Part shown: one piece after another, positions 8,704 to 32,684 of the stretch
How the letters are laid out: the number at the start of each line of letters is the position of its first letter
How positions within the stretch are numbered: the stretch's first letter is position 1
Assembly: GCF_009649845.1 (NCBI RefSeq)
Contig: NZ_WJIE01000009.1
Coordinates: 1 to 32,684, forward strand
Source: Polyangium spumosum
GTDB taxonomy: Bacteria > Myxococcota_A > Polyangia > Polyangiales > Polyangiaceae
Direction of reading: 5' to 3'
DNA: 32,684 nt
Program-made: the position numbers and the translations under genes
Notes under the pieces: generated by a model
Seen by the model: only the letters and a program-made list of their open reading frames with translations
Database searches by the model: none
What the model was told of the DNA's origin: nothing

Positions 8704-13044
<4,341 letters not shown>

Positions 13045-13102
13045 TCGCGTCGGGGTAGGGGAGGCCGTCCGGCCTGTCCTACCTCGCCGAATTTCGATCA
13101 AC

Positions 13103-13144
13103 ACACGCCCGCCCTTTCACGAGGCGCGGGCGTGTGGTTTTTTT
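13103..13144 (+). terminator. rho-independent terminator of the rplKAJL-rpoBC transcription unit
   Basis: A perfect 10-bp GC-rich stem, ACACGCCCGC (13103-13112) with GCGGGCGTGT (13126-13135), has a 13-nt loop and is followed by GG then TTTTTTT (13138-13144). A second nested hairpin without a U-tract precedes it at 13054-13083 (GGTAGG..AGGCCG-tc-CGGCCT..CCTACC). Confidence 0.8.
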
Positions 13145-13251
13145 GTTCGGCCTGGTACGCGCCACTCCCTGCCGATCTGCCGGATGACTGCTGCTTCGGC
13201 GGGTCCAGGGATCCCCCATCCTTGCGGACATGTACTATCTCTGGTCTCGCG

Positions 13252-15432
13252 ATGTCCGTGCACGGCACCAACCAGCGTGTCGCTGATCGCCTGCTCTCCG
13301 AGGGCCGGATCGGGGCCGAGGAGCATCGGCGCGCCGTGGAGCACGCGAGCCGCCAGCGCGGCCGCATCGAGGACGCGCTCGTCGAGCTCGACATCGTGCC
13401 CGAAGGGGACCTGCTCAAGTACGTCGCGACCCTGCACAACACGCGGTTCGTCTCGACCGAGAAGCTCTCGAAGGCCGCCATCGAGCCTCGCGTGCTCGGG
13501 CGCGTCTTGCCGAAGACCGCGAAGATGCACGGCGTCTTCCCGGTGCTGCTCGACGAGGCGAAGTCGGTGCTCTCCGTCGTCACCGCCGATCCCGACAACG
13601 ACGCGGCGATCCACGAGGTGAAGCTCGCGGCGGGCGTGCGCGAGGTGCGCGCGCTCGTGGCCCGGCCGGCCGCGGTGCGCGCGGCGATCGCGCGGCATTA
13701 CTTCAAGGAAACGTCGGCCTTCGAAGCGCTCCTCCGGCCTGTCGCGACGGCCGCGCAGACGGGGGATTTCATCGACATCGATCTCGGCCCCGCGCCTGCG
13801 CGTCCTGCCACCGGGCCCGTGCCGACGCCGGCCGCGTCGCCGCGCAGGTCGGCCTTGCAGCCGCCTCCGCCGCCGCGCGCGCCGATGCCCACGGCGCCCT
13901 CGGCGACCGGACAAACCAGCCCCTCGGGCGCGCGCGAGCAGACGCAGCCCTCGGTGCACACGGGCAGCACGCAGCCCTCGGTGAACGGCGGGCCCCCGCC
14001 TCCTGTCGCGGCGAGCGCGCAGACCTCGCCCACGGGCGGCCACGCGCCGCCCACGCAGGCCCGCCCGCAGCTCGCCCCGCCGCCTTCACCGACGCCGCCG
14101 CCTCCTCCCGTCCCGGTCCTCACGCCGATCGAGACCCACGAGTACGTCGAGACGCTCAACGTCCTCGTCAGCTTGCTCGAAGCGAACCGGCAGGACCTAC
14201 GTGGCCACTCGGCCGTCGTCGCGCGCCTCGTGCGTCGCACGTGCGAGCGCATCGGCCTCGCGCCTGCGCATGTCGCGGCGTTTGTCGTGGCGGCCTACCT
14301 GCACGACCTCGGCAAGATGGGCGCGTATCACCTCACGGCGCTAAACGTCGCCGAGTACGAGGGCCACAGGGTCGCGGGGCTCAAGGCCGTCGCGCTCCCG
14401 GCGCAGCTCATGGGCTCGGTGGGCTTGCCGGCGGAGAGCATCGCGGCGCTGCAGGCCATGTACGAGCGGTACGACGGCCGCGGCTTGCCGCATGGCCTCG
14501 CGGGCAAGGAGATCCCGCTCGGCGCGCGTATCCTCGCCGTCGCGGACACCTACGCCGACCTCACGCAGAACCCGCGCAACCCCTTCCGCAAGATCCTGCG
14601 CCCGCCCGAGGCGTGTGACGTGCTTGCCGGGTATCGCGGCACCGTCTTCGATCCGAACATCGTCGACCTCTTCCGCCACGAGGTCACGGGTGACGACATG
14701 CGCGCGCGGCTCCTGTCCGAGCGGTACACCGTGCTCGTCATCGACCCGGATCCCGAGGAGACGACGGTGCTCGAGCTCCGGCTCATCGAGCAGGGCTTCG
14801 AGGTGCGCGTCGCGCGGACCGTGGCGCAGGCGTGGCGTGAGCTCGAGGGCGGCGAGATCGCGGCGGTCGTCAGCGAGATCGACCTCGAGGAGCCCGAGAT
14901 GGGCCTCGCGCTCCGGGCGGACGCGCAGAAGGAGTCGTGGGGTCGCGGGATCACGTGGGTGATCCTCACGCGCAAGAACGACAAGCACAGCGCGCAGAAG
15001 TCCTTTGATCTCGGCGTCGACGACTTCGTTTCGAAGCCGACGTCCGCGGACATCTTCGCGGCCAAGCTCCGTCAGCTCGTCGAGCGTCGGGTCGCGCGTG
15101 GTGGCGGGCGCGGCGTGGCGGGATCCCTCGCGGAGATGAGCATCCCGGACATGGTCCAGGTCCTCTGGCATGGCCGCAAGACGTGCGCGCTGCGTATCCA
15201 GACGGGCAAGGGCACGGGCGAGATCCACTTCGCGGAGGGGCAGATCGTGGACGCGCGCTGGGAGCAGGTCTTCGGCGAGGAGGCCTTCTACCGCATGATC
15301 GCGCTCGACGAGGGCGAGTTCCGGCTCGAGCCCGACGTCGAGCCTACGGGCCGCACGATCGCCGTCTCGCCCGAGGCGCTCTTGCTGGAGGGCATGCGCC
15401 GCCTCGACGAGGGCATGCTCCACGCGCCGTGA
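13252..15432 (+). CDS. multidomain c-di-GMP-type signalling protein: GspE-N/MshEN-like N-domain, Pro-rich linker, HD-GYP-like domain, response-regulator receiver, C-terminal DUF4388
   Basis: A single long high-GC3 frame. Residues 10-150 show a duplicated RLGxxLLxxGxI...Q pattern (VADRLLSEGRIGAEEHRRAVEHASRQ and RIEDALVELDIVPEGDLLKYVA), typical of T2SSE_N/MshEN. The Pro-rich linker is ~130 aa. The HD motif is AAYLHDLGKMG. A GYP-like motif YERYDGRGLPHGL is degenerate versus HHExxDGxGYP. The receiver runs RYTVLVIDPDPEE...VVSEIDLEEPEMGLAL...ILTRKNDKHSAQKSFDLGVDDFVSKP. DUF4388 is SLAEMSIPDMVQVLWHGRKTCALRIQTGKGTGEIHFAEGQIVDA. The track start at 13132 overlaps the rpoC terminator, so the ATG at 13252 is preferred. 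Confidence 0.85.
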   Translation: MSVHGTNQRVADRLLSEGRIGAEEHRRAVEHASRQRGRIEDALVELDIVPEGDLLKYVATLHNTRFVSTEKLSKAAIEPRVLGRVLPKTAKMHGVFPVLLDEAKSVLSVVTADPDNDAAIHEVKLAAGVREVRALVARPAAVRAAIARHYFKETSAFEALLRPVATAAQTGDFIDIDLGPAPARPATGPVPTPAASPRRSALQPPPPPRAPMPTAPSATGQTSPSGAREQTQPSVHTGSTQPSVNGGPPPPVAASAQTSPTGGHAPPTQARPQLAPPPSPTPPPPPVPVLTPIETHEYVETLNVLVSLLEANRQDLRGHSAVVARLVRRTCERIGLAPAHVAAFVVAAYLHDLGKMGAYHLTALNVAEYEGHRVAGLKAVALPAQLMGSVGLPAESIAALQAMYERYDGRGLPHGLAGKEIPLGARILAVADTYADLTQNPRNPFRKILRPPEACDVLAGYRGTVFDPNIVDLFRHEVTGDDMRARLLSERYTVLVIDPDPEETTVLELRLIEQGFEVRVARTVAQAWRELEGGEIAAVVSEIDLEEPEMGLALRADAQKESWGRGITWVILTRKNDKHSAQKSFDLGVDDFVSKPTSADIFAAKLRQLVERRVARGGGRGVAGSLAEMSIPDMVQVLWHGRKTCALRIQTGKGTGEIHFAEGQIVDARWEQVFGEEAFYRMIALDEGEFRLEPDVEPTGRTIAVSPEALLLEGMRRLDEGMLHAP

Positions 15433-15595: not shown

Positions 15596-16966
15596 ATGAA
15601 GCTCCTTCGCGCCTTCGTTTTGTCCTTGCCGCTCCTCGCCGCGCCCGCGCTCTACGCGGGTGACGCCGACGCCTGCGGCGGCTGTACCGTCGTGCAGTCG
15701 GAGAACACGCAGGTCACCGGTCATCGGATGATCCTTTCGATCTCCAACGATCGGACGACGCTCTACGATCAGATCACCTACGCGGGCAACCCCTCCTCCT
15801 TCGCGTGGATCCTGCCCATCAAGGGCGAGGTCGACGTCGGGCTCTCGTCCGACGCGGTCTTCAACGCGCTCGAGCAGGCCACGCAGATCTCGGTCGTCTC
15901 GCCCTCGATCAACTGCCTGCCGCCTGGCTGCGCGGGCGCGCCGAACGCGGGCGGCGACTTCGACAACGCGGGATCGGGCGGCGCGGGCGGCGGCGGCGTC
16001 GAGGTGATCGCCGAGGAGGTCGTGGGTCCGTACGCCACGGTGCAGCTCTCGTCGCAGGACCCGAACGCGCTCGCGAACTGGCTGCTCTCGAACGGCTACT
16101 ACGTCCCGCCGGACATCAAGCCCGTCATCGACGCCTACGTGAACGAGGGCTTCAACTTCCTCGCCCTCAAGCTCGTGCCTGGCGAGGGCGTCAACTCGAT
16201 GCGGCCCGTGCGTATCTCCTCGCTCGGCGCGCAGCCGACCTTGCCTCTGCGTATGGTCGCCGCGGGCACGGGCGCGATCACGCCGATCACCTTGTGGATC
16301 CTCGGCGAGGGCCGGTACGAGCCGACGAACTTCCCGAGCTTCCAGATCAAGGCCCAGGATCTCGTGTGGAACTGGGACACGCAGTCGAGCAACTACACGG
16401 ACCTCAAGAAAAAGAGCTTCGACGCGTCGGGCGGCAAGGCGTGGCTCATCGAGGCGGGCCAGCCGTTCTCGAGGTACTGGATCGAGGACAACCTGAAGTG
16501 GACGGCCCAGAACGACCCGGAGAACAGCGGCTACGGCGGCGATCCCATGGGGCCGAGCGCGCTCGACGAGTGTGTCGAGGACCTCGACACGCTCTTCGGC
16601 TCGATCCCCGAGAACACCCTCTGGTTGACGCGCATCCACGCCGAACTCTCGCGCCCCGCGCTCGCGACCGATCTCACGCTGGGCGCGTCGGCCGACCAGT
16701 CGCACGTCGAGCGATGGCTGCAGGTCGAGAACGCCATCGGCACGCCGCCCGCATGCCCGCCCCCGCCGGACTGGTGCTTCGATCAGGACATGCCCGACGT
16801 GAACCCGTGGGACAACGGCGTCGGCGTCGGGGCGGACGACCCGAACGCCGGCACGAAGAGCAACGCGAGCTGCGCCATCCGCGGCGAGGCGAGCATGCCT
16901 GCGACGCTCGGGCTCCTCGGCGGCGCGCTGGTCCTCTCGGTCGCGCGTCGTCGTCGGCGTCGTTGA
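15596..16966 (+). CDS. secreted DUF2330-like protein with C-terminal MYXO-CTERM sorting signal
   Basis: N-terminal signal peptide is MKLLRAFVLSLPLLAAPALYAGDADACGGC. The conserved central region (FAWILPIKGEVDVGLSS...YVPPDIKPVIDAYVNEGFNFLALKL) recalls PF10092/DUF2330; this is from memory and unverified. The C-terminus, ...NASCAIRGEASMPATLGLLGGALVLSVARRRRRR, has Cys, a hydrophobic helix and an Arg tail as in MYXO-CTERM. GGAG lies 9 nt upstream of the ATG. Confidence 0.85.
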   Translation: MKLLRAFVLSLPLLAAPALYAGDADACGGCTVVQSENTQVTGHRMILSISNDRTTLYDQITYAGNPSSFAWILPIKGEVDVGLSSDAVFNALEQATQISVVSPSINCLPPGCAGAPNAGGDFDNAGSGGAGGGGVEVIAEEVVGPYATVQLSSQDPNALANWLLSNGYYVPPDIKPVIDAYVNEGFNFLALKLVPGEGVNSMRPVRISSLGAQPTLPLRMVAAGTGAITPITLWILGEGRYEPTNFPSFQIKAQDLVWNWDTQSSNYTDLKKKSFDASGGKAWLIEAGQPFSRYWIEDNLKWTAQNDPENSGYGGDPMGPSALDECVEDLDTLFGSIPENTLWLTRIHAELSRPALATDLTLGASADQSHVERWLQVENAIGTPPACPPPPDWCFDQDMPDVNPWDNGVGVGADDPNAGTKSNASCAIRGEASMPATLGLLGGALVLSVARRRRRR

Positions 16967-22620: not shown

Positions 22621-22640
22621 GCCTCGGGGGACCTTTGATG

Positions 22641-22718
22641 AAAGGTCTCGAGGGGGTCGATCAAAGGTCTCGAGGGGGTCGATCAAAGGTCTCGAGGGGG
22701 TCGATCAAAGGTCTCGAC
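22641..22718. repeat. 22-bp direct tandem repeat, ~3.5 copies (AAAGGTCTCGAGGGGGTCGATC)
   Basis: Read directly: three perfect 22-nt units at 22641-22662, 22663-22684 and 22685-22706, plus a partial unit AAAGGTCTCGAC that merges into the 21-bp array. The period is not a multiple of 3. Confidence 0.9.
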
Positions 22719-23009
22719 CCGGTCGCGGACCTGCTCGACCCGGTCGCGGACCTGCTCGACCCGGTCGGCGACCTGCTCGACCCGGTCGCGAACCTGCTCG
22801 ACCCGGTCGGTGACCTCCTCGACCCGGTCGCGAACCTGCTCGACCCGGTCGCGGACCTCCTCGACCCGGTCGCGGACCTGCTCGACCCGGTCGCGGACCT
22901 GCTCGACCCGGTCGCGGACCTCCTCGACCCGGTCGCGGACCTGCTCGACCCGGTCGCGGACCTGCTCGACCCGGTCGCGGACCTCCTCGACCCGGTCGCC
23001 GACCGCCTG
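22716..23009. repeat. 21-bp direct tandem repeat, 14 copies (GACCCGGTCGCGGACCTGCTC), in phase with codons
   Basis: Read directly: 14 contiguous units with few variant positions (gcg to ggc/gcc, gac to aac/gtg, ctg to ctc, last unit GACCCGGTCGCCGACCGCCTG). All six frames are open across it: DPVADLL, TRSRTCS and PGRGPAR on the + strand. Positions 2, 8, 14, 17 and 20 of the unit are the only A/T. Confidence 0.9.
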
Positions 23010-24009: not shown

Positions 24010-24025
24010 TGAGGACCGACGCGTG

Positions 24026-25744
24026 ATGAACCAGCGGCAGATCCTGGCTTTTGTCGAGAAGCTCCGGCAGGCGCGGACCTTCGAGGACGCCGCGCAGGCC
24101 ATGCTGCGCGGGATGCTGGACGCGGCGAACGAGGCGCTCGGGGCGAGCGGGTTCGCGAACCGAGGCCGCATCCTCCGCGGCATGGCGCATCTGCGGCCCG
24201 GCGACGGCTACCGGCGATTGGTGCTCGTCGACGACGCCCACCGGAGCGGCGAGCCCGTGATCCACCATCTGCCCTCCGCGAGCGCGTGGCGGTGGATCGT
24301 CACGCGGGGGCGCCCCATTGCGCTCGACGTCCCGCTCGGCCGCGTGTGGACGCTGGAGGACGATGCGCCGAAGGTGCTCCAGGAGGGCGGGTTCTCCGGC
24401 CAGGACAGCGTGCTGCGATTGACGAACCGCGACACGAGCCACCTCTATGCGGTCCCCCTGCGGGCCTTCCACGGCGCGATCGAGGGGATGGCGACGGTCG
24501 AGGCGGCCTGCCCGCGGGCCGTGGGCGACGATTTCATCTTCCCGGCCCTCCACGAATCGCTCGAGGTCCTCGCCGACCTCGCGGCGCCTTATCTCGCGAC
24601 CTTGCCCTTGCGGCCTGTGACGGGTGGCGCCACGGACGAGCTCTTGCCGGTCATTGGCCAGACCATGGCGGGCTTGATCGAAATGCTCCGGGTCTTCGCG
24701 CAGCAGGAGGAGACCTTGCTCATCGGCGGTCCGACGGGGGCGGGCAAATCGCGGCTGGCGCGGTGGTGCCATGCGCAATCGGTCCGGCGGGGGGCGCCGT
24801 TCGAGGTGCTCGACCTCATCGCCGTGCCCGAGGAGCTCCAGATGGCGGAGCTCTTCGGCTGGAAAAAGGGCGCCTTCACGGGCGCGGTGCGCGACACGCC
24901 GGGCTGCATCACGCGGGCGTTCAAGGGGACCTTGTTCATCGACGAGATCGACAAGCTCTCGCTGAAGGCGCAGGCGGGCTTGCTCCAGCTCCTCGAATCG
25001 CGGACGTATCGCCCGATCGGGGACGGGGCGCGGGAGCAGCAGGCGAACGTGCGCTTCATCGTGGGCAGCAACGTCGACCTGTACGATCAGGTGAAGGCGG
25101 GCCGTTTCCGGGAGGATCTTTATTATCGGATCAACGTGCTGCCCTTGAAGATCCCCCCGCTCGACGAGCGGCGGGACGAGGTGGCGGAGTGGGCGCGATT
25201 CATGGCGGTGCGGCGTCATCGTGAATCGGTGCCGGGCGGAGAGGTGCGAATCCTGGCGGGGGCGGAGCGGCTGCTGGCGGAGCACACGTGGCCGGGGAAT
25301 TTGCGGCAGCTCGACAACGTGGTGCGGCGGGCCTACGCGCTCGCGTTGATGACGCATGGCCAGGCGGGGGCGGAGGTCGTGCTGGAGGAGAAACATTTCG
25401 CGCGGGCCTTGAGCTACGAGCGCGGGAGCGAGCGGCGGTCGGCGCTGGAGGCGCTACGCGGCGCGGCGGAGGCGCTGGTGGAGGAGGCGGAGCGGCTGGA
25501 GGCGAAGGGGCAGGGGCTCGAGCTGGAGGTATGCGACGCGTTCCGCGGGATCGTGCTGGGGACGGCGGTGGAGAAGCTCGGCAGCCGGGACGCGGCGTTC
25601 CGGCTGTTCGGGAAGGGCGCGCAGGTGCAGGCGCGCAATCACCACAAGATGTTGCGGCGCGAATGGGAGAAGGTGGAGGCGCTCTGCAAGGCGCTCGGGG
25701 AGGAGGGAGCGCCGTTCAAGGGGATGGGGGAGGAGGAGGGGTGA
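24026..25744 (+). CDS. sigma-54-dependent transcriptional activator (GAF-like N-domain, AAA+ sigma-54 interaction domain, degenerate C-terminal HTH)
   Basis: Walker A is LLIGGPTGAGKSRLAR. The GAFTGA motif is WKKGAFTGA. Walker B/ESR is TLFIDEIDKLS...RFIVGSNVDL...EDLYYRINVL. The ATG is 14 nt after the kinase stop and follows GAGGA, fitting an operon with the Ser/Thr kinase. Confidence 0.9.
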   Translation: MNQRQILAFVEKLRQARTFEDAAQAMLRGMLDAANEALGASGFANRGRILRGMAHLRPGDGYRRLVLVDDAHRSGEPVIHHLPSASAWRWIVTRGRPIALDVPLGRVWTLEDDAPKVLQEGGFSGQDSVLRLTNRDTSHLYAVPLRAFHGAIEGMATVEAACPRAVGDDFIFPALHESLEVLADLAAPYLATLPLRPVTGGATDELLPVIGQTMAGLIEMLRVFAQQEETLLIGGPTGAGKSRLARWCHAQSVRRGAPFEVLDLIAVPEELQMAELFGWKKGAFTGAVRDTPGCITRAFKGTLFIDEIDKLSLKAQAGLLQLLESRTYRPIGDGAREQQANVRFIVGSNVDLYDQVKAGRFREDLYYRINVLPLKIPPLDERRDEVAEWARFMAVRRHRESVPGGEVRILAGAERLLAEHTWPGNLRQLDNVVRRAYALALMTHGQAGAEVVLEEKHFARALSYERGSERRSALEALRGAAEALVEEAERLEAKGQGLELEVCDAFRGIVLGTAVEKLGSRDAAFRLFGKGAQVQARNHHKMLRREWEKVEALCKALGEEGAPFKGMGEEEG

Positions 25745-27798: not shown

Positions 27799-30700
27799 TC
27801 AGAGCAACGCAAGCGCCTCCATGAGAGCCTGGCCATGTTGGCGCTCGAGGCTGTGATCCTCGCGGAAGGCGGACTCCAGGGCCTCCCTCGCGCGACGGGC
27901 GGCGTCGGAGACCGCGGCCCCACGGCCTGCCGCGCGAGCCTGTACCAGGTAGAGTAGACCCTTCGCCAGGAGCGCCGTGGCCATGTGTGGATTTATCGAG
28001 AGCGCCTTGTCCGCCATGAGGAGCCCGGCGGCGACGTCCTCGCGCGAACTTCTGGCGGTCTGCTGGGCCCACGACGCCCGCCAGGCATGGATCTCGGCCG
28101 CGATTTGGTATGGGTTCGGATCCCTGGCATCGGAGAGCAACGGGCGTATCGTCGCGAGGGCGGCATCAAAGGCGTCGGCGTCCACGTCCCTCCGTTGCAC
28201 GGCGACGCGTATGGCGATCAGGTCGATCTCCGCGGTCATTCCGCGCAGGTCGGGGGTCAGGCCCCCGCGAAGCTTCGCCGCCTCCGATGTAGCTTGCCGT
28301 GCGGTCGAGACGGAGGCGTCCGGGGCGAGACCTTCCTGGATCTCGTACAAGGCACGCAGATAATAACAGCAGGCCACTTCGGCGAGCAGGTACGGATCTC
28401 TGGGCTGGTCACCGGCGAAGCGACGCACCCTATCGAGAGCTGATTGTATCGATGGGCGTGGATCTCGGCCGAGGGAGAGCTCGCGAAGTCCTTGGAGTCG
28501 CTCCACGCGTGCCCTCCAGTAGGCTTTACGAAATGGGTCGATGTTTTCCCGCTGCTCGAGTGACGTGAGTGCCGCCGCCAGCGCCGCGACTGGAGCCATC
28601 TCGGCTCGACCTCGTTGGATCTCGTGACGCACCAGCAGGGCGAGCGCCTGGACTCTCAGATGGATGGGTGGCGCGAAGGCCGGATCCAGCGCGATCGCGC
28701 GGTCGAAATGTCGGAGGGCCTCGTTCACGACATCCTGCACATCCTCGCCGCGCGAGGTGGCCCGGCCTGCAGCCGCAAGATATACCTGCCCCAGCTCGTT
28801 GACCGCCCAGGTGAAGCTCGGGTCGAGCTCGATGGCTCGACGATACGCAGAGATGACGGGCTCGACCGATAGATCCTCGCCCCGCGAGGAGAGGATCTGC
28901 GTGTGGTTGTTGATCGAGCGCGCCATCGCATAATGCGCCATCACGTCCCCCGGGCTCATGCGCACGCTCTCCTCCGCCGCGCGCACCGCCTCCTCCGCGA
29001 CCCGCCGTGCTTCCTCCCCGGTATCGCCGCGGAATGCATACGATCGCGCCGACATCACGAGCGCCCGCTGCACCCGCGCCCTTCCATCCTTCGAGCTCGC
29101 CTGCACCGCGCGCATGCAAGCTTCATCCGCCGTATCGAGCGCCGCCTTCATCGACGCCCCCTTCTCCCCCGCTGCCCACCCCATCTTCTCCCAAAGCTCA
29201 CACTCCGCCCGATGCAGGTCCGGATCACTCTCCCCCATCCGCGCCGCCACCGCGTACGCCTCCGCCGCCGGATCGAAATACCGCTTCATCTTCTCCCAAT
29301 CGAACGCCGCGTCGTGCCGATACTTGCTCCCCTCCGCGAACAACGCATCCGCCTCCAGTTGCTTCGCCTCGTACATCCACGGCGCCTGCTCGAACGCCTC
29401 CTTCCCCAGCGCCCGCGCCTCCTCGTTCCTCCCCTCGTACAGCGCGATCAGCCCCTCCACGTACGCCGGCGCCTCGATCTCCGCCCCCGACGCCGCCCGC
29501 AGATGCCCGAGCGCAGGATCCCGCAACGCCGCCGCGAGCTCCGCCTCCCGCTTCTTTCGCTCCTCCGCGTTCGTGATCCGCTTCGTCTCGTCGAGCGCCC
29601 TTCGATACAGCTCCCCCAGCGTCCGACCGAGCGCATATTCGAGCTCCGGCGACCGATACCCCGCCGCCACCGCCGCCTCCAGGTGCTCCCGCGCCTTCTC
29701 CGGATCCCCCAGCGCCAGATACCCCCGCCCGAGCGCGTAATGCCCCGGCCCCTCGCCGACCCGCCCCGCCTCCTTCATTCGTTGCTCGATCCCCGCGAGC
29801 TTCCGCCGCACCACGTCCCGCTCCCGCTCCACGTCGTGCAAGGGCAATGCGTAGGCCGCGCGCAGGAAGAGCTCCATCTCCTTCACCCGCTCCCCGAGCT
29901 CCTGCGCGAGCCTCGCCTCCGCCGCCGCCTGCTGCCGCGCCTCGAACCACACACCCGAGAGCGCGAGCGCGGCGACGAGCGACGCCCCCCCGAGCGCCGT
30001 CGCGAGCTTGTGCTTCCGCGCCTTCTTCAGGAGCACGTATCCCCAGGACGCACGCCGCGCCGCGATGGGCTCCCCGTCCAGAAATCGCTGCAGATCCTCC
30101 GCGAGCGCCCGCGCCGATTCGTATCGACGCCCGGGATCACGCTCCAGGCATTTCATCACGATCGTCTCGAGGTCCGCCGGCACCCCCTTCTTCACCGTCC
30201 CGAGCGGCGGCGGATCCTCGAACGCCACCATCATCAAGAGCTTCCACGCGTGTGGCGCGACGAACGGTGGCCGCTCCGCGAGGACGTCGTACAAGGTCGC
30301 CCCGAGCGAATACACGTCCGAACGTCGATCCAGCGCGTGCACCTCGCCCTTCGCTTGCTCCGGCGACATGAACGCCGGCGTCCCCAGCACCGCCCCCGTC
30401 ACCGTCTCCCCCTTGTCCGCGACCTCCCGCGCCAGACCAAAATCCATCACGTACGGCTTGATTCCCCCGTCCGCGTCGGCCTCGACCATGATGTTCCCGG
30501 GCTTCAGATCCCGATGAATCAGCCCGAGCCGGTGCGCCTCGTGCACCGCCGCCGCGACCTCGCGCATCACCTTCACGCGTTGCTCGAGCGAGAGCCGCCC
30601 GGCCATCCTCGAGAGCGGCTCGCCCTCGATGTATTGCATCGCGATGAACGGCTCGCCGTCGGCCTCCCCGGCCTCGTAAATGCGGCAGACGTGCTCGTGC

Positions 30701-31011
30701 TGGATCTTCGCCTGCGCGCGCGCCTCCAGCAGGAAACGCCGCCAGAGCTCCGGATCGCTGCCCTTCAAGAGCTTGAGCGCCACCACGCGCCCGAGCCGCT
30801 TGTCCCGGCCGCGGTAGACCGCCCCCATCCCGCCTTCGCCGAGGAAATGGATGTCCTCGTACCGCTCCGCGAGGGACGGAGGCACGAAGCGACGCTCGGA
30901 CCGCGGCACCGAACGAGGGCCTGATTCCGTCGACGCGAGACCCGGCGCCGCGAGCACCGTGGTGTTCTCCACGTCGACGTTCTCCTCGGGCGACGCTCGA
31001 ACGATCCTCAT
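27799..31011 (-). CDS. receptor-type Ser/Thr protein kinase: N-terminal Hanks kinase, single TM, ~700-aa C-terminal helical (TPR-like) repeat domain
   Basis: The track ORF 27799..32070 is over-extended. The internal ATG at 31009-31011 has GGGGGAGG 5 nt upstream and gives MRIVRASPEEN...YEDIHFLGEGGMGAVYRGRDKRLGRVVALKLL...HRDLKPGNIMV...DFGLAR...GTPAFMSPEQ. A TM helix (KLATALGGASLVAALALSGVWF) follows, then a long alpha-helical repeat region (e.g. ALGRGYLALGDPEKAREHLEAAVAAGY). The sequence beyond 31011 overlaps a real + strand gene. Confidence 0.9.
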   Translation of the reverse strand: MRIVRASPEENVDVENTTVLAAPGLASTESGPRSVPRSERRFVPPSLAERYEDIHFLGEGGMGAVYRGRDKRLGRVVALKLLKGSDPELWRRFLLEARAQAKIQHEHVCRIYEAGEADGEPFIAMQYIEGEPLSRMAGRLSLEQRVKVMREVAAAVHEAHRLGLIHRDLKPGNIMVEADADGGIKPYVMDFGLAREVADKGETVTGAVLGTPAFMSPEQAKGEVHALDRRSDVYSLGATLYDVLAERPPFVAPHAWKLLMMVAFEDPPPLGTVKKGVPADLETIVMKCLERDPGRRYESARALAEDLQRFLDGEPIAARRASWGYVLLKKARKHKLATALGGASLVAALALSGVWFEARQQAAAEARLAQELGERVKEMELFLRAAYALPLHDVERERDVVRRKLAGIEQRMKEAGRVGEGPGHYALGRGYLALGDPEKAREHLEAAVAAGYRSPELEYALGRTLGELYRRALDETKRITNAEERKKREAELAAALRDPALGHLRAASGAEIEAPAYVEGLIALYEGRNEEARALGKEAFEQAPWMYEAKQLEADALFAEGSKYRHDAAFDWEKMKRYFDPAAEAYAVAARMGESDPDLHRAECELWEKMGWAAGEKGASMKAALDTADEACMRAVQASSKDGRARVQRALVMSARSYAFRGDTGEEARRVAEEAVRAAEESVRMSPGDVMAHYAMARSINNHTQILSSRGEDLSVEPVISAYRRAIELDPSFTWAVNELGQVYLAAAGRATSRGEDVQDVVNEALRHFDRAIALDPAFAPPIHLRVQALALLVRHEIQRGRAEMAPVAALAAALTSLEQRENIDPFRKAYWRARVERLQGLRELSLGRDPRPSIQSALDRVRRFAGDQPRDPYLLAEVACCYYLRALYEIQEGLAPDASVSTARQATSEAAKLRGGLTPDLRGMTAEIDLIAIRVAVQRRDVDADAFDAALATIRPLLSDARDPNPYQIAAEIHAWRASWAQQTARSSREDVAAGLLMADKALSINPHMATALLAKGLLYLVQARAAGRGAAVSDAARRAREALESAFREDHSLERQHGQALMEALALL

Positions 31012-31044
31012 CCAGCCTCCCCCCTTTGCAGCCAGAGCATTCCG

Positions 31045-31060
31045 GGCAAACACCATACCA
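31045..31060 (-). promoter_or_regulatory. weaker sigma-54-like -24/-12 match upstream of the receptor kinase gene
   Basis: The minus strand reads TGGTATGGTGTTTGCC. GG to GC spacing is 10 nt. The -12 element is TTTGC, a perfect TTGC core. The -24 element is TGGTAT versus TGGCAC. The predicted start is ~24 nt upstream of the ATG at 31011. Confidence 0.22.
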
Positions 31061-31194
31061 GCCGAGCGGCCCGCGCGGAAGCCGCCGTTTCGTTCGTCCG
31101 TGCCGCCCGCCATCGCGCCGGCTCGACGAAATGTCGCGCCTGCGCAACGCCTCGCGCCTTTCTGACATCGAAGCCCGGATCGAGGAGGTTTTCC

Positions 31195-32684
31195 ATGGAG
31201 CGCTGGGACACGATCGTCGTGGGATCGGGGTCGGGGGGCCTCACGGCCGCGCTCGCGCTCGCGCGGGCCGGGCAGCGGGTGCTCGTCCTCGAACAGCATT
31301 ATCTGCCGGGCGGCTGGACGCACAGCTTCGCGCTCGAAGGTTATCGGTTCAGCCCCGGCGTCCATTACATCGGCGAGCTCGGCCCCGGCGAATCCGTCCG
31401 CGCCCTTTACGAGGGCCTCGGCCTCGCCCCGGACCTCGTCTTCCACGAGCTCGCCCCGGACGGGTTCGACCATTTCGTCATCGGCGGCGAGCGGTTCGAC
31501 GTCCCTGCCGGCTTCGATCGATATTTCGAGCGCCTCGTCTCCCGCTTCCCGCACGAGCGAAAGGGCCTCGAGAAATACTTCGACGTCGTCGGCCGCATCG
31601 TCGCCGACACCCTCCGCTGCGAGGAGCTGCTCGCCTCGCCGGGCGGCGCCCTCACGCTCCCGTTCCGCGCCCGGAGCCTCGCCGTCTGGGGCCTGCGCAC
31701 CCAGCGCGCGCTGCTCGACGGCACCATCCGCGATCCGCTCCTCCGCGGCATCCTCGCCGCGCAATCGGGCAACCACGGCCTGCCCCCCTCGCGTGTCTCG
31801 CTCCCGCTCCACGCCCGCATGATCACCCATTATTACGGCGGCGGTTTTTATCCACGCGGCGGCGCCAAGCGTATCCCCATGGCCATGATCAAGGCCCTGC
31901 GCAAGCGCGGCGGCGAGATCCGCCTCCGCGCCCGCGTCCGCCGCATCCTCGTCGAGGACGGCCGCGCGGCCGGCGTCGAGCTCGAATCCGGCGAGCGGTT
32001 CGCGTCCCGCGCCGTCGTCTCCAACGCCGACCCCGCGATCACCTTCGGCAAGCTCCTCGAGCCGCCCCACGGCGAGCGCGAGCGCCGGAAGACCCGCCGC
32101 ATGGAATACTCCGTCGGCCTGCTCAGCGTCTTCGCCGCCACCGACCTCGATCTACGCGCCCTGGGCCTCGACTCGGGCAATTACTGGATCTATCGCACGC
32201 TCGACGTGAGCGGCGTCTACGAGCGCGCCCTCCACGCGCTCCCCCAGGGCCTCATCGAGGGCCTCTTCCTCACGGTCACCACGCTGAAGGACCCCGGCCA
32301 CGCCCCGAAGGGCCACCATACCCTCGAGCTCTTCACGTTCGTCCCCTACGAGCCCTTCGAGGCCTGGGCCGGCACCACCGCGGCCCGCCCCGCGGCCTAT
32401 CGCGACCTCAAGGAGCGCCTCGGCGACGCCATGATCGCCGCCGCCGAGCGCGTGATCCCCGGGCTCGGCAAGAACCTCGTCTTCCGCTCCGTCGGCACGC
32501 CCCTCACGAACGACTTTTATTGCGAGACCCACCGCGGCGCGAGTTACGGCACCGCAAAGCTCCCGTCCCAGCTCGGCCCCTTTTCGTTCCCCATTCGCTC
32601 GAGCGTCCCCGGCCTCTACAACGTCGGCGCCAGCACGATCAGCCACGGCGTCGCGGGCGCCGCCACCTCCGGCCTCTTCGCGGC
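31195..32684 (+). CDS. FAD/NAD(P)-binding oxidoreductase, phytoene-desaturase/RetSat (CrtI-like) family; 3'-truncated by window end
   Basis: Not in the ORF track because no stop falls inside the window. The ATG at 31195 has GAGGAGG 6 nt upstream. Translation MERWDTIVVGSGSGGLTAALALARAGQRVLVLEQHYLPGGWTHSFALEGYRFSPGVHYIGE... shows a Rossmann GxGxxG dinucleotide-binding fold and the typical CrtI-family N-terminus. GC3 is very high for about 496 codons without a stop. Confidence 0.85.
   Translation, partial: MERWDTIVVGSGSGGLTAALALARAGQRVLVLEQHYLPGGWTHSFALEGYRFSPGVHYIGELGPGESVRALYEGLGLAPDLVFHELAPDGFDHFVIGGERFDVPAGFDRYFERLVSRFPHERKGLEKYFDVVGRIVADTLRCEELLASPGGALTLPFRARSLAVWGLRTQRALLDGTIRDPLLRGILAAQSGNHGLPPSRVSLPLHARMITHYYGGGFYPRGGAKRIPMAMIKALRKRGGEIRLRARVRRILVEDGRAAGVELESGERFASRAVVSNADPAITFGKLLEPPHGERERRKTRRMEYSVGLLSVFAATDLDLRALGLDSGNYWIYRTLDVSGVYERALHALPQGLIEGLFLTVTTLKDPGHAPKGHHTLELFTFVPYEPFEAWAGTTAARPAAYRDLKERLGDAMIAAAERVIPGLGKNLVFRSVGTPLTNDFYCETHRGASYGTAKLPSQLGPFSFPIRSSVPGLYNVGASTISHGVAGAATSGLFA

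Follow-up and report, generated by a model that had tools for sequence, protein, structure and literature searches.

Does the open reading frame that follows rpoBC in Polyangium spumosum encode an enzyme that degrades cyclic di-GMP (c-di-GMP), or a protein that has kept the fold of such an enzyme for another purpose? The gene lies on the forward strand of a 32,684 nucleotide (nt) stretch of contig NZ_WJIE01000009.1 (assembly GCF_009649845.1, positions 1 to 32,684), which is termed the window. That GGDEF, EAL and HD-GYP domains can serve as c-di-GMP receptors once degenerate is established, and few HD-GYP cases have been studied. An original prediction, made from the sequence of the window, read the gene as a possible receptor or scaffold with degenerate HD-GYP motifs. 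The present analysis suggests that the product is more likely a cytoplasmic adaptor in signalling, from a family found across Myxococcota, than a c-di-GMP-degrading enzyme.

13252–15432 (+), whole gene, encoding a 726 amino acid (aa) protein in the order MshEN, linker, HD-GYP-like, pseudo-receiver, PATAN (open reading frame, four Pfam domains)

The HD-GYP-like domain

14128–14691 (+), HD-GYP-fold domain, aa 293–480 (Pfam HD_5 and HD; phmmer, Foldseek)
14302–14307 (+), intact HD dyad H351-D352, within LHDLGK
14458–14490 (+), MYERYDGRGLP replacing HHExxDGxGYP (M403/Y404 and L412)

The domain displays similarities to PA4781, DvhD, V-cGAP3 and PmGH in phmmer and Foldseek searches. The best sequence match is PA4781 (E = 7e-17), and the PDB entries matched by Foldseek are 4r8z, 9rbz and 4mcw. 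A full-length AlphaFold2 model was made from a 71-sequence alignment (mean predicted local distance difference test, pLDDT, 79; predicted template modelling score, pTM, 0.43). Its helices at positions 319–334, 338–350, 363–386, 394–401, 423–439, 451–460 and 468–479 follow the alpha6–alpha12 order of PmGH. The fold and helix order are those of PmGH (4MCW), PA4781 (4R8Z) and the RpfG family. The receiver of RpfG is N-terminal, however, and here it is C-terminal to the HD-GYP-like domain. The peptide LHDLGK, reported as intact in the original prediction, is encoded at positions 14299–14316, and the MYERYDGRGLP peptide is encoded as predicted.

Residues were compared with PmGH by HMMER alignment to 4MCW, in which the SEQRES numbering is the paper numbering + 6. 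H319 is the counterpart of PmGH H189, H351-D352 fall on H221-D222, K355 on K225 and D432 on D305. H372 aligns with the H250-type His of PA4781. These residues, the Glu of HHE and the DGxGxP loop are thus retained as in canonical HD-GYP domains. Unlike the canonical domains, M403 and Y404 occupy the positions of H276 and H277, and L412 that of the GYP Tyr, Y285. The substituted positions are metal ligands in PmGH, and the prediction that the HHE to MYE change removes two metal-ligand His, and that the eponymous Tyr is lost as well, is borne out. Additional differences from the canonical domains are R313 at the D183 position and A435 at the D308 position, where the Asp is displaced to residue 436. 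The E185 position is D315. There is an eight residue deletion relative to PA4781 between HDxGK and the H250-type His, and most of the L7/8 substrate “claw”, which bears the LxKPG segment, is therefore gone. The nucleotide-contacting L10/11 loop is kept as N440-P-R-N-P-[Y/F]-R-K447.

The substituted residues are highly conserved. A close-family alignment comprises 121 sequences of 55–94% identity, in which M403, Y404, E405, D408, G409, G411 and P413 are invariant. H319, H351, D352, K355, H360 and D432 are also invariant, in agreement with the predicted intact HD dyad, and H372 is present in 119 of the 121. The L10/11 loop is near-invariant, and the GYP Tyr position has F, I or L. A broad alignment of 118 rows (117 full-length cluster representatives and the window protein) extends down to about 31% identity. 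The consensus of the motif in these rows is [M/L]-Y-E-x-[F/Y/W]-D-G-x-G-[F/L/V/I]-P, and [ML]-Y-E is present in about 100 rows, across Myxococcota. Among the 118 rows, H319 is found in all, H351 in 117, E405 in 116 and Y404 in 108. The D352 position has Asp in 107 and Glu in 7 more, and the D432 position has Asp in 81 and Glu in 35 more. Only 77 rows retain H372, and just 59 have an acidic residue at the E185 position.

A separate observation concerns H360 (positions 14329–14331), which belongs to a Y-H-L-T motif in the L7/8 loop that is shortened here. This His has no counterpart in canonical HD-GYP domains and is kept in 115 of the 118 rows, compared with 77 for the canonical ligand H372. 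H360 was considered as the H250 equivalent and rejected, since H372 occupies the xxHxxxG context at the start of alpha8.

PmGH loses its activity upon any of the mutations H276A, H277A, D183A, K225A and D308A, and GYP mutations leave activity (PMC4159591). Because the GYP mutants stay active, the lost Tyr is weak evidence when taken by itself. M403/Y404 replace the activity-essential His pair and L412 the GYP Tyr, and thus, as judged from the residues present, canonical c-di-GMP phosphodiesterase activity appears unlikely. The PmGH authors also suggest that the metals of the M and H sites could be sufficient for hydrolysis (PMC4159591). Mononuclear HD phosphohydrolases require only H...HD...D, and in PhnZ a Tyr is a ligand to iron (PMC8177086). 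According to the alignments, the third (“G”) metal site has lost its two His while the classical H...HD...D set is under strong selection, and a Tyr and the loop residue H360 have become fixed instead. The MYE substitutions appear fixed and not drifting, which points to a remodelled but functional site rather than a dead one. Invariance of MYE in 121 of 121 sequences together with the retained H...HD...D core leaves room for a non-canonical active site.

The receiver domain

14722–15099 (+), aspartate-less pseudo-receiver, aa 491–616 (PF00072; family profile alignment)
14875–14877 (+), codon for E542 at the phospho-acceptor position (VVSEIDL is encoded at 14866–14886)

The predicted structure is that of a receiver, with five strands alternating with helices, and target-normalised TM-scores against many receiver structures are about 0.9 (Foldseek). 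The residues of the phosphorylation site are another matter. The family profile, which is gapless around beta3, places E542 on D57 of CheY, D53 of PhoB and D54 of Spo0F. In the same comparison D498 of the acidic pair aligns with CheY D12 and P499 with CheY D13. Strand beta3 of the AlphaFold2 model spans positions 538–542 and ends at E542. All 121 close homologues have Glu at this position, and the broad alignment shows Glu in 99 of 118 rows and Asp in 8 more. The close family always has the conserved Thr and Lys of receivers (T573 and K595).

D544, two residues past E542, was considered as an alternative phospho-acceptor. It was rejected because the profile alignment and the end of beta3 both place E542 at the site, and because D544 is variable (Asp in 58 rows, Glu in 23 and other residues in 37 of 118).

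Glu is the commonest replacement of the acceptor in aspartate-less receivers and is sometimes phosphomimetic (PMC12632262). As E542 stands in for the acceptor and P499 for the second acidic residue, the domain is an aspartate-less pseudo-receiver under the definitions given there. It thus does not appear to be a phosphorylatable response regulator, and input by Asp phosphorylation, which had been proposed for this protein, is not supported by the residues at the site.

The MshEN-like N-domain

13276–13434 (+), MshEN N-subdomain, aa 9–61, with two degenerate 24-residue motifs and a 5-residue spacer (PilB alignment)
13435–13734 (+), MshEN C-subdomain, aa 62–161 (PF05157 at 72–151; pLDDT >90)

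The assignment of the N-terminal region to the MshEN family was predicted and is upheld by the profile match (PF05157, residues 72–151, 38.3 bits against a cut-off of 23.1). The N-subdomain is modelled as four helices at positions 9–16, 22–34, 39–45 and 51–61, and the C-subdomain as an alpha/beta fold with pLDDT above 90. Foldseek matches the domain to PilF GSPII-A (9g1w) and MshE (5htl). The residue numbering coincides with that of Vibrio cholerae MshE, and R9, R38, L54, V58 and the 5-residue spacer are kept in register with it.

The c-di-GMP motif is altered. Alignment to Myxococcus xanthus PilB shows the changes G11A, L25H, Q32A, G40E, G47D and Q61L, and neither of the two Gly nor either of the two Gln is left in the pair of 24-residue motifs. 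The relaxed motif of Wang et al. has no match in the window protein and matches none of 120 close homologues. The NCBIfam model of the c-di-GMP motif, NF053729, gives 17.5 bits, which is below the cut-off of 38. In MshEN the Gly backbone amides read the guanine and the Gln residues bind the ribose-phosphate, and G11 and G40 mutants lose c-di-GMP binding (Wang et al., PMC5013675). A change of Gly to Ala alone results in a 10- to 30-fold loss of affinity (PMC12002112). The motif residues thus give no support for canonical binding of c-di-GMP by the N-domain, nor for the c-di-GMP input proposed to act through it.

PilF GSPII-A is the best structural match (Foldseek E = 1.8e-7), and it too has the MshEN fold with a deviating motif. 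It fails to bind c-di-GMP although its motif deviates at fewer positions, H33, S39, A41 and R62, than that of the Polyangium protein (PMC12002112). Unlike the protein described here, it is part of a pilus ATPase.

The PATAN domain

15118–15411 (+), PATAN/DUF4388 domain, aa 623–720, likely output module (PF14332, 88.9 bits)

The DUF4388/PatA_N match (cut-off 25) covers profile positions 1–120 of 122, and the pLDDT of the domain is approximately 76–94. No PATAN structure is present among the best 50 PDB matches found by Foldseek. In Synechocystis, PATAN serves for output and binds PilC as well as the N-terminal domain of PilB1, and the same study noted proteins that combine DUF4388 with GspE_N (bioRxiv 10.1101/2021.06.11.447907). 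Such binding to the type IV pilus motor is known for Synechocystis regulators only. PATAN is also found fused to the c-di-NMP receptor domain ComFB. By analogy, the PATAN domain is likely the output module of the Polyangium protein.

Cyanobacterial PatA-type (PATAN-REC) regulators likewise combine PATAN, as their output domain, with a receiver, and orphan members are reported to work without phosphorylation (bioRxiv 10.1101/2021.06.11.447907). The domain order differs: in PatA-type proteins PATAN is N-terminal to a phosphorylatable receiver, whereas here it is C-terminal to a receiver without the acceptor Asp. MshEN and HD-GYP domains are additions in the Polyangium protein, and the alpha-clip insertion is not evident in its AlphaFold2 model.

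Coordinates and architecture

13735–14127 (+), Pro-rich disordered linker, aa 162–292 (pLDDT <50 over most of 165–275)

The open reading frame starts with ATG at position 13252 and its stop codon is at 15430–15432. The nearest homologues are from Polyangium species, display 92–94% identity and are 725–726 aa long; the equal chain length supports the start at 13252. A longer reading from a GTG at 13132 was rejected, since it would enter the hairpin that follows rpoC and the homologue lengths fit 13252.

The predicted architecture of four domains and a Pro-rich linker is present, and all four domains exceed the Pfam gathering cut-offs. In addition to the MshEN and PATAN scores given above, these are HD_5 (PF13487, residues 304–470, 75.6 bits, cut-off 27.2), HD (PF01966, 34.9 bits, cut-off 22) and Response_reg (PF00072, residues 494–602, 39.4 bits, cut-off 30.2). 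The NCBIfam models give no family-level match, the best being a NosR-family model with 112 bits, where 400 are required. The AlphaFold2 model is confident for the four domains and disordered from about residue 165 to 275. Homologues that differ in total length align well except across the linker. The domain combination as such is already catalogued in the earlier literature; Wang et al. listed MshEN fusions with receiver and HD-GYP domains. The original prediction named the degeneracy of the HD-GYP motif correctly. It did not notice those of the MshEN motif and the receiver, and the word degenerate understates how strongly the altered HD-GYP motif is conserved.

Distribution and reciprocal decay

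When 1.84 billion cluster representatives were searched exhaustively with HMMER, 309 scored at E ≤ 1e-30, and a scan of GTDB species genomes found 433 loci that encode a relative. The best 80 of the 433 loci are all from Polyangia, i.e. Polyangium, Sorangium (including So ce56), Chondromyces, Byssovorax, Minicystis and Labilithrix.

A second search, started from a distant member, found proteins of 652–653 aa in Archangium violaceum and Pyxidicoccus fallax with MshEN, HD_5 and PatA_N domains. This branch carries the motif LYE. It keeps a canonical MshEN motif I (KLGERLVEAGLV...ALEHQ), and 98 of 103 sequences match the relaxed motif. Decay of the receiver is complete in this branch, where Gly replaces the acceptor and the Lys is gone. 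The Polyangiaceae proteins are the reverse, with a degenerate MshEN motif and a receiver that retains Thr and Lys. The alignments thus show a reciprocal decay of sensor modules between myxobacterial suborders, where Polyangiaceae appear to have lost the MshEN motif and Archangium and Pyxidicoccus the receiver site.

Two further observations were made on this branch. The pattern opposite to that of Polyangiaceae is seen in proteins from Archangium, Pyxidicoccus and Myxococcaceae metagenome-assembled genomes. In Archangium the gene begins 3 nt past an uncharacterised 500 aa open reading frame without a Pfam match, and the two may be co-transcribed.

MXAN_2807 of M. xanthus is a 661 aa protein described as having MshEN and an HD-GYP domain “lacking several conserved residues”, and its in-frame deletion gave no growth, motility or development defect in the assays used (PMC4686200, PMC4877007, PMC8844925). 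Judged from the published description, it is probably the M. xanthus member of this family. It resembles the Polyangium protein in having MshEN and an HD-GYP domain without several catalytic residues. The MXAN_2807 branch (Pyxidicoccus, Archangium) differs from the Polyangium protein in its canonical MshEN motif I, decayed receiver and different genomic context.

Possible functions

The reading favored here is that of an adaptor that is not phosphorylated, in which the HD-GYP-like domain would sense a nucleotide or metal and PATAN would carry the signal onward. It is held tentatively, at somewhat below an even chance. The remodelled HD-GYP pocket would be the real sensor and would still bind metal and nucleotide. 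Its putative ligand is c-di-GMP or a similar di- or oligonucleotide, which would be turned over little if at all. The pseudo-receiver, with its Glu, would be a fixed or conformational coupler and not a phosphorylation switch. The MshEN-like N-domain may be a protein-interaction module resembling the PilB N-terminus, and a partner, perhaps the motor of type IV pili, may receive the output from PATAN.

DvhD, a degenerate HD-GYP protein of Desulfovibrio vulgaris that binds c-di-GMP without metal or catalysis (PMC13090378, 2026), is a precedent. The two share the HD-GYP fold (PDB 9RBZ/9RC0, Foldseek E = 7.7e-8), a Met at the first His of HHE and a similar L10/11 loop (RPRS-YR in DvhD, NPRNPFRK here), and both are non-catalytic, by prediction in the case of the Polyangium protein. 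The c-di-GMP contact residues of DvhD are Y523, L577, K582, Y621, M646, R650, Y652 and E668. By HMMER mapping, four of the eight positions have the same or a similar residue in the Polyangium family (L361, L437, R442 and Y/F445). The proteins also differ. DvhD has lost the HD dyad (to SQ) and the final Asp (to Asn), has no metal and keeps the GYP Tyr, whereas the Polyangium protein keeps HD, D432 and K355, has lost the GYP Tyr and has a Tyr at the second His position. DvhD is, moreover, a membrane PAS-domain protein of a Lap-like system and does not have the MshEN, receiver and PATAN arrangement.

Several points count against the adaptor reading. The other four DvhD contact positions differ (D315, V366, L412 and R462). 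The strict retention of H319, the HD dyad, D432 and K355, with Asp or Glu at the E185 position, is the pattern expected of an enzyme. The known non-catalytic HD-GYP proteins DvhD, HnoD and ECA3548 have lost the HD dyad too. The link to type IV pili is by domain association only, and no pil, che or kinase gene is conserved nearby. The absence of a growth, motility or development phenotype upon deletion of the probable homologue MXAN_2807 is also counted against it.

The enzyme-like residues lead to a different explanation, an active hydrolase with a non-canonical metal centre acting on c-di-GMP, pGpG, cyclic GMP-AMP (cGAMP) or another phosphoester, which is considered unlikely but carries some weight. 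In such an enzyme D315, H319, H351, D352 and D432 would bind one or two metals, and Y404 and/or H360 would replace the lost His pair or touch the phosphate. The near-universal H...HD...D set and the conserved H360 are consistent with this, as are the modest ligand requirement of mononuclear HD phosphohydrolases, the Tyr ligand of PhnZ and the M-H pair proposal. An RpfG protein without a key His is reported to hydrolyse c-di-GMP robustly, and the HD dyad lost from known dead HD-GYP proteins is kept here. However, H276A, H277A, D183A and D308A each nearly abolish PmGH activity and all four residues are changed here, to M, Y, R and A, respectively; some eight residues are missing from the L7/8 claw, and neither H372 nor the acidic residue at the E185 position is consistently retained in the broad alignment. 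If instead no sensor-like domain binds a small ligand or is modified, the protein would be a pure scaffold and its conservation would reflect fold and interfaces. This is rather unlikely. All three signature sites do fail the family tests, the long disordered linker is typical of tethering proteins and loss of the probable homologue MXAN_2807 gives no phenotype, but maintenance of the fold alone hardly accounts for buried polar residues of the metal-ligand type (H319, H351, D352, H360, D432 and E405) that stay invariant down to about 31% identity, and DvhD has lost these residues and still folds.

The original prediction proposed dual input, by receiver phosphorylation and by c-di-GMP binding at the N-domain. 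Both domains pass the Pfam thresholds, and the residues in register with V. cholerae MshE, the retained T573 and K595, the nearby D544 and the canonical motif I of the distant Archangium and Pyxidicoccus relatives are in its favor. It is nevertheless improbable, given the six motif changes, of which mutation of G11 or G40 abrogates binding and a Gly to Ala change is costly to affinity, the failure of the relaxed motif and of NF053729, the Glu at the acceptor, the Pro in place of a metal-binding Asp and the variability of D544. Of the proposed inactive receptor or scaffold, the part that stands is that a canonical phosphodiesterase is unlikely; the inputs assigned to it fail at their defining residues. 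A further and rather doubtful idea is that [M/L]-Y-E and H360 within the otherwise intact H...HD...D site form a metal or ligand centre of a new kind for the HD-GYP fold, and that the MshEN replacements (A11, H25, A32 and E40), which are just as conserved, have likewise retuned their domain. Such a centre could be a His/Asp/Tyr-ligated mono- or binuclear site. If this were true, the centre would give a different specificity, e.g. for pGpG, 3′3′-cGAMP or another nucleotide, and the MshEN domain would be retuned to a ligand other than c-di-GMP.

Genomic context

13103–13145 (+), terminator-like hairpin and U-run after rpoC (RNA fold)

The gene was described as directly downstream of rpoBC. This is correct as to position, rpoC ending at 13044, 207 nt upstream, but the adjacency says nothing about function. 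The sequence between rpoC and the gene contains a long GC-rich hairpin and, after it, a U7 run. The fold of positions 13090–13150 has an energy of −31.1 kcal/mol (z = −6.33), and none of 200 shuffled sequences folds as well. The hairpin looks like a strong intrinsic terminator, and a scan for consensus promoters and terminators missed it. The order rpoB-rpoC-X-(DUF2330)-panB, where X is the gene described here, is found in Polyangium, Sorangium, Chondromyces, Byssovorax and some metagenome-assembled genomes, down to 56% identity. About half of the best 80 loci are without rpoC upstream and adjoin, e.g., rplM/rpsI or hemC. The only recurring neighbours are rpoC, DUF2330 and panB, in one subclade only. 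A functional link to rpoBC was therefore rejected, and the position is an accident of synteny particular to this lineage. Among the loci compared (Sorangium, a distant metagenome-assembled genome, loci without rpoC, the Labilithrix group, Archangium and the window), no partner gene of the kinase, pil or che type is conserved.

Other features of the window are as follows. Positions 15596–16966 (+) encode a DUF2330 protein (103 bits) that has a signal-peptide-like N-terminus and is without an NCBIfam match. Its C-terminal tail has a Cys, a hydrophobic stretch and RRRRRR and resembles a sorting tag. This open reading frame is syntenic with the gene described here and panB in many Polyangiaceae. 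A 22-bp repeat (3.7 copies, 98% matches) at 22637–22717 precedes a 21-bp tandem repeat (13.9 copies, 92% matches) at 22713–23004. Both repeats are within long open reading frames on both strands that have no Pfam match, and the 21-bp unit, in frame, gives a 7 aa repeat. Further downstream are a sigma-54 activator-type AAA+ protein at 24023–25744 (+) and a 1423 aa Ser/Thr kinase with tetratricopeptide (TPR) repeats at 27799–32070 (−), neither of which is syntenic with the gene elsewhere.

Significance

Degenerate HD-GYP receptors, pseudo-receivers and MshEN folds that do not bind c-di-GMP are each already known, and the HD-GYP receptor examples found in the literature lost the HD dyad as well. 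The literature search found no description of [M/L]-Y-E as a fixed variant alongside a preserved HD dyad and a new invariant loop His, of three degenerate sensor modules within one protein, or of reciprocal decay of sensor modules between suborders. The annotations “RpfG family c-di-GMP phosphodiesterase” and “response regulator” are probably both functionally wrong for these proteins. A family that keeps the HD core and fixes Met/Leu-Tyr in place of the His pair is a natural test of the roles of the “G” site and of HHE. The reciprocal decay between the suborders could reveal which module is the real input.

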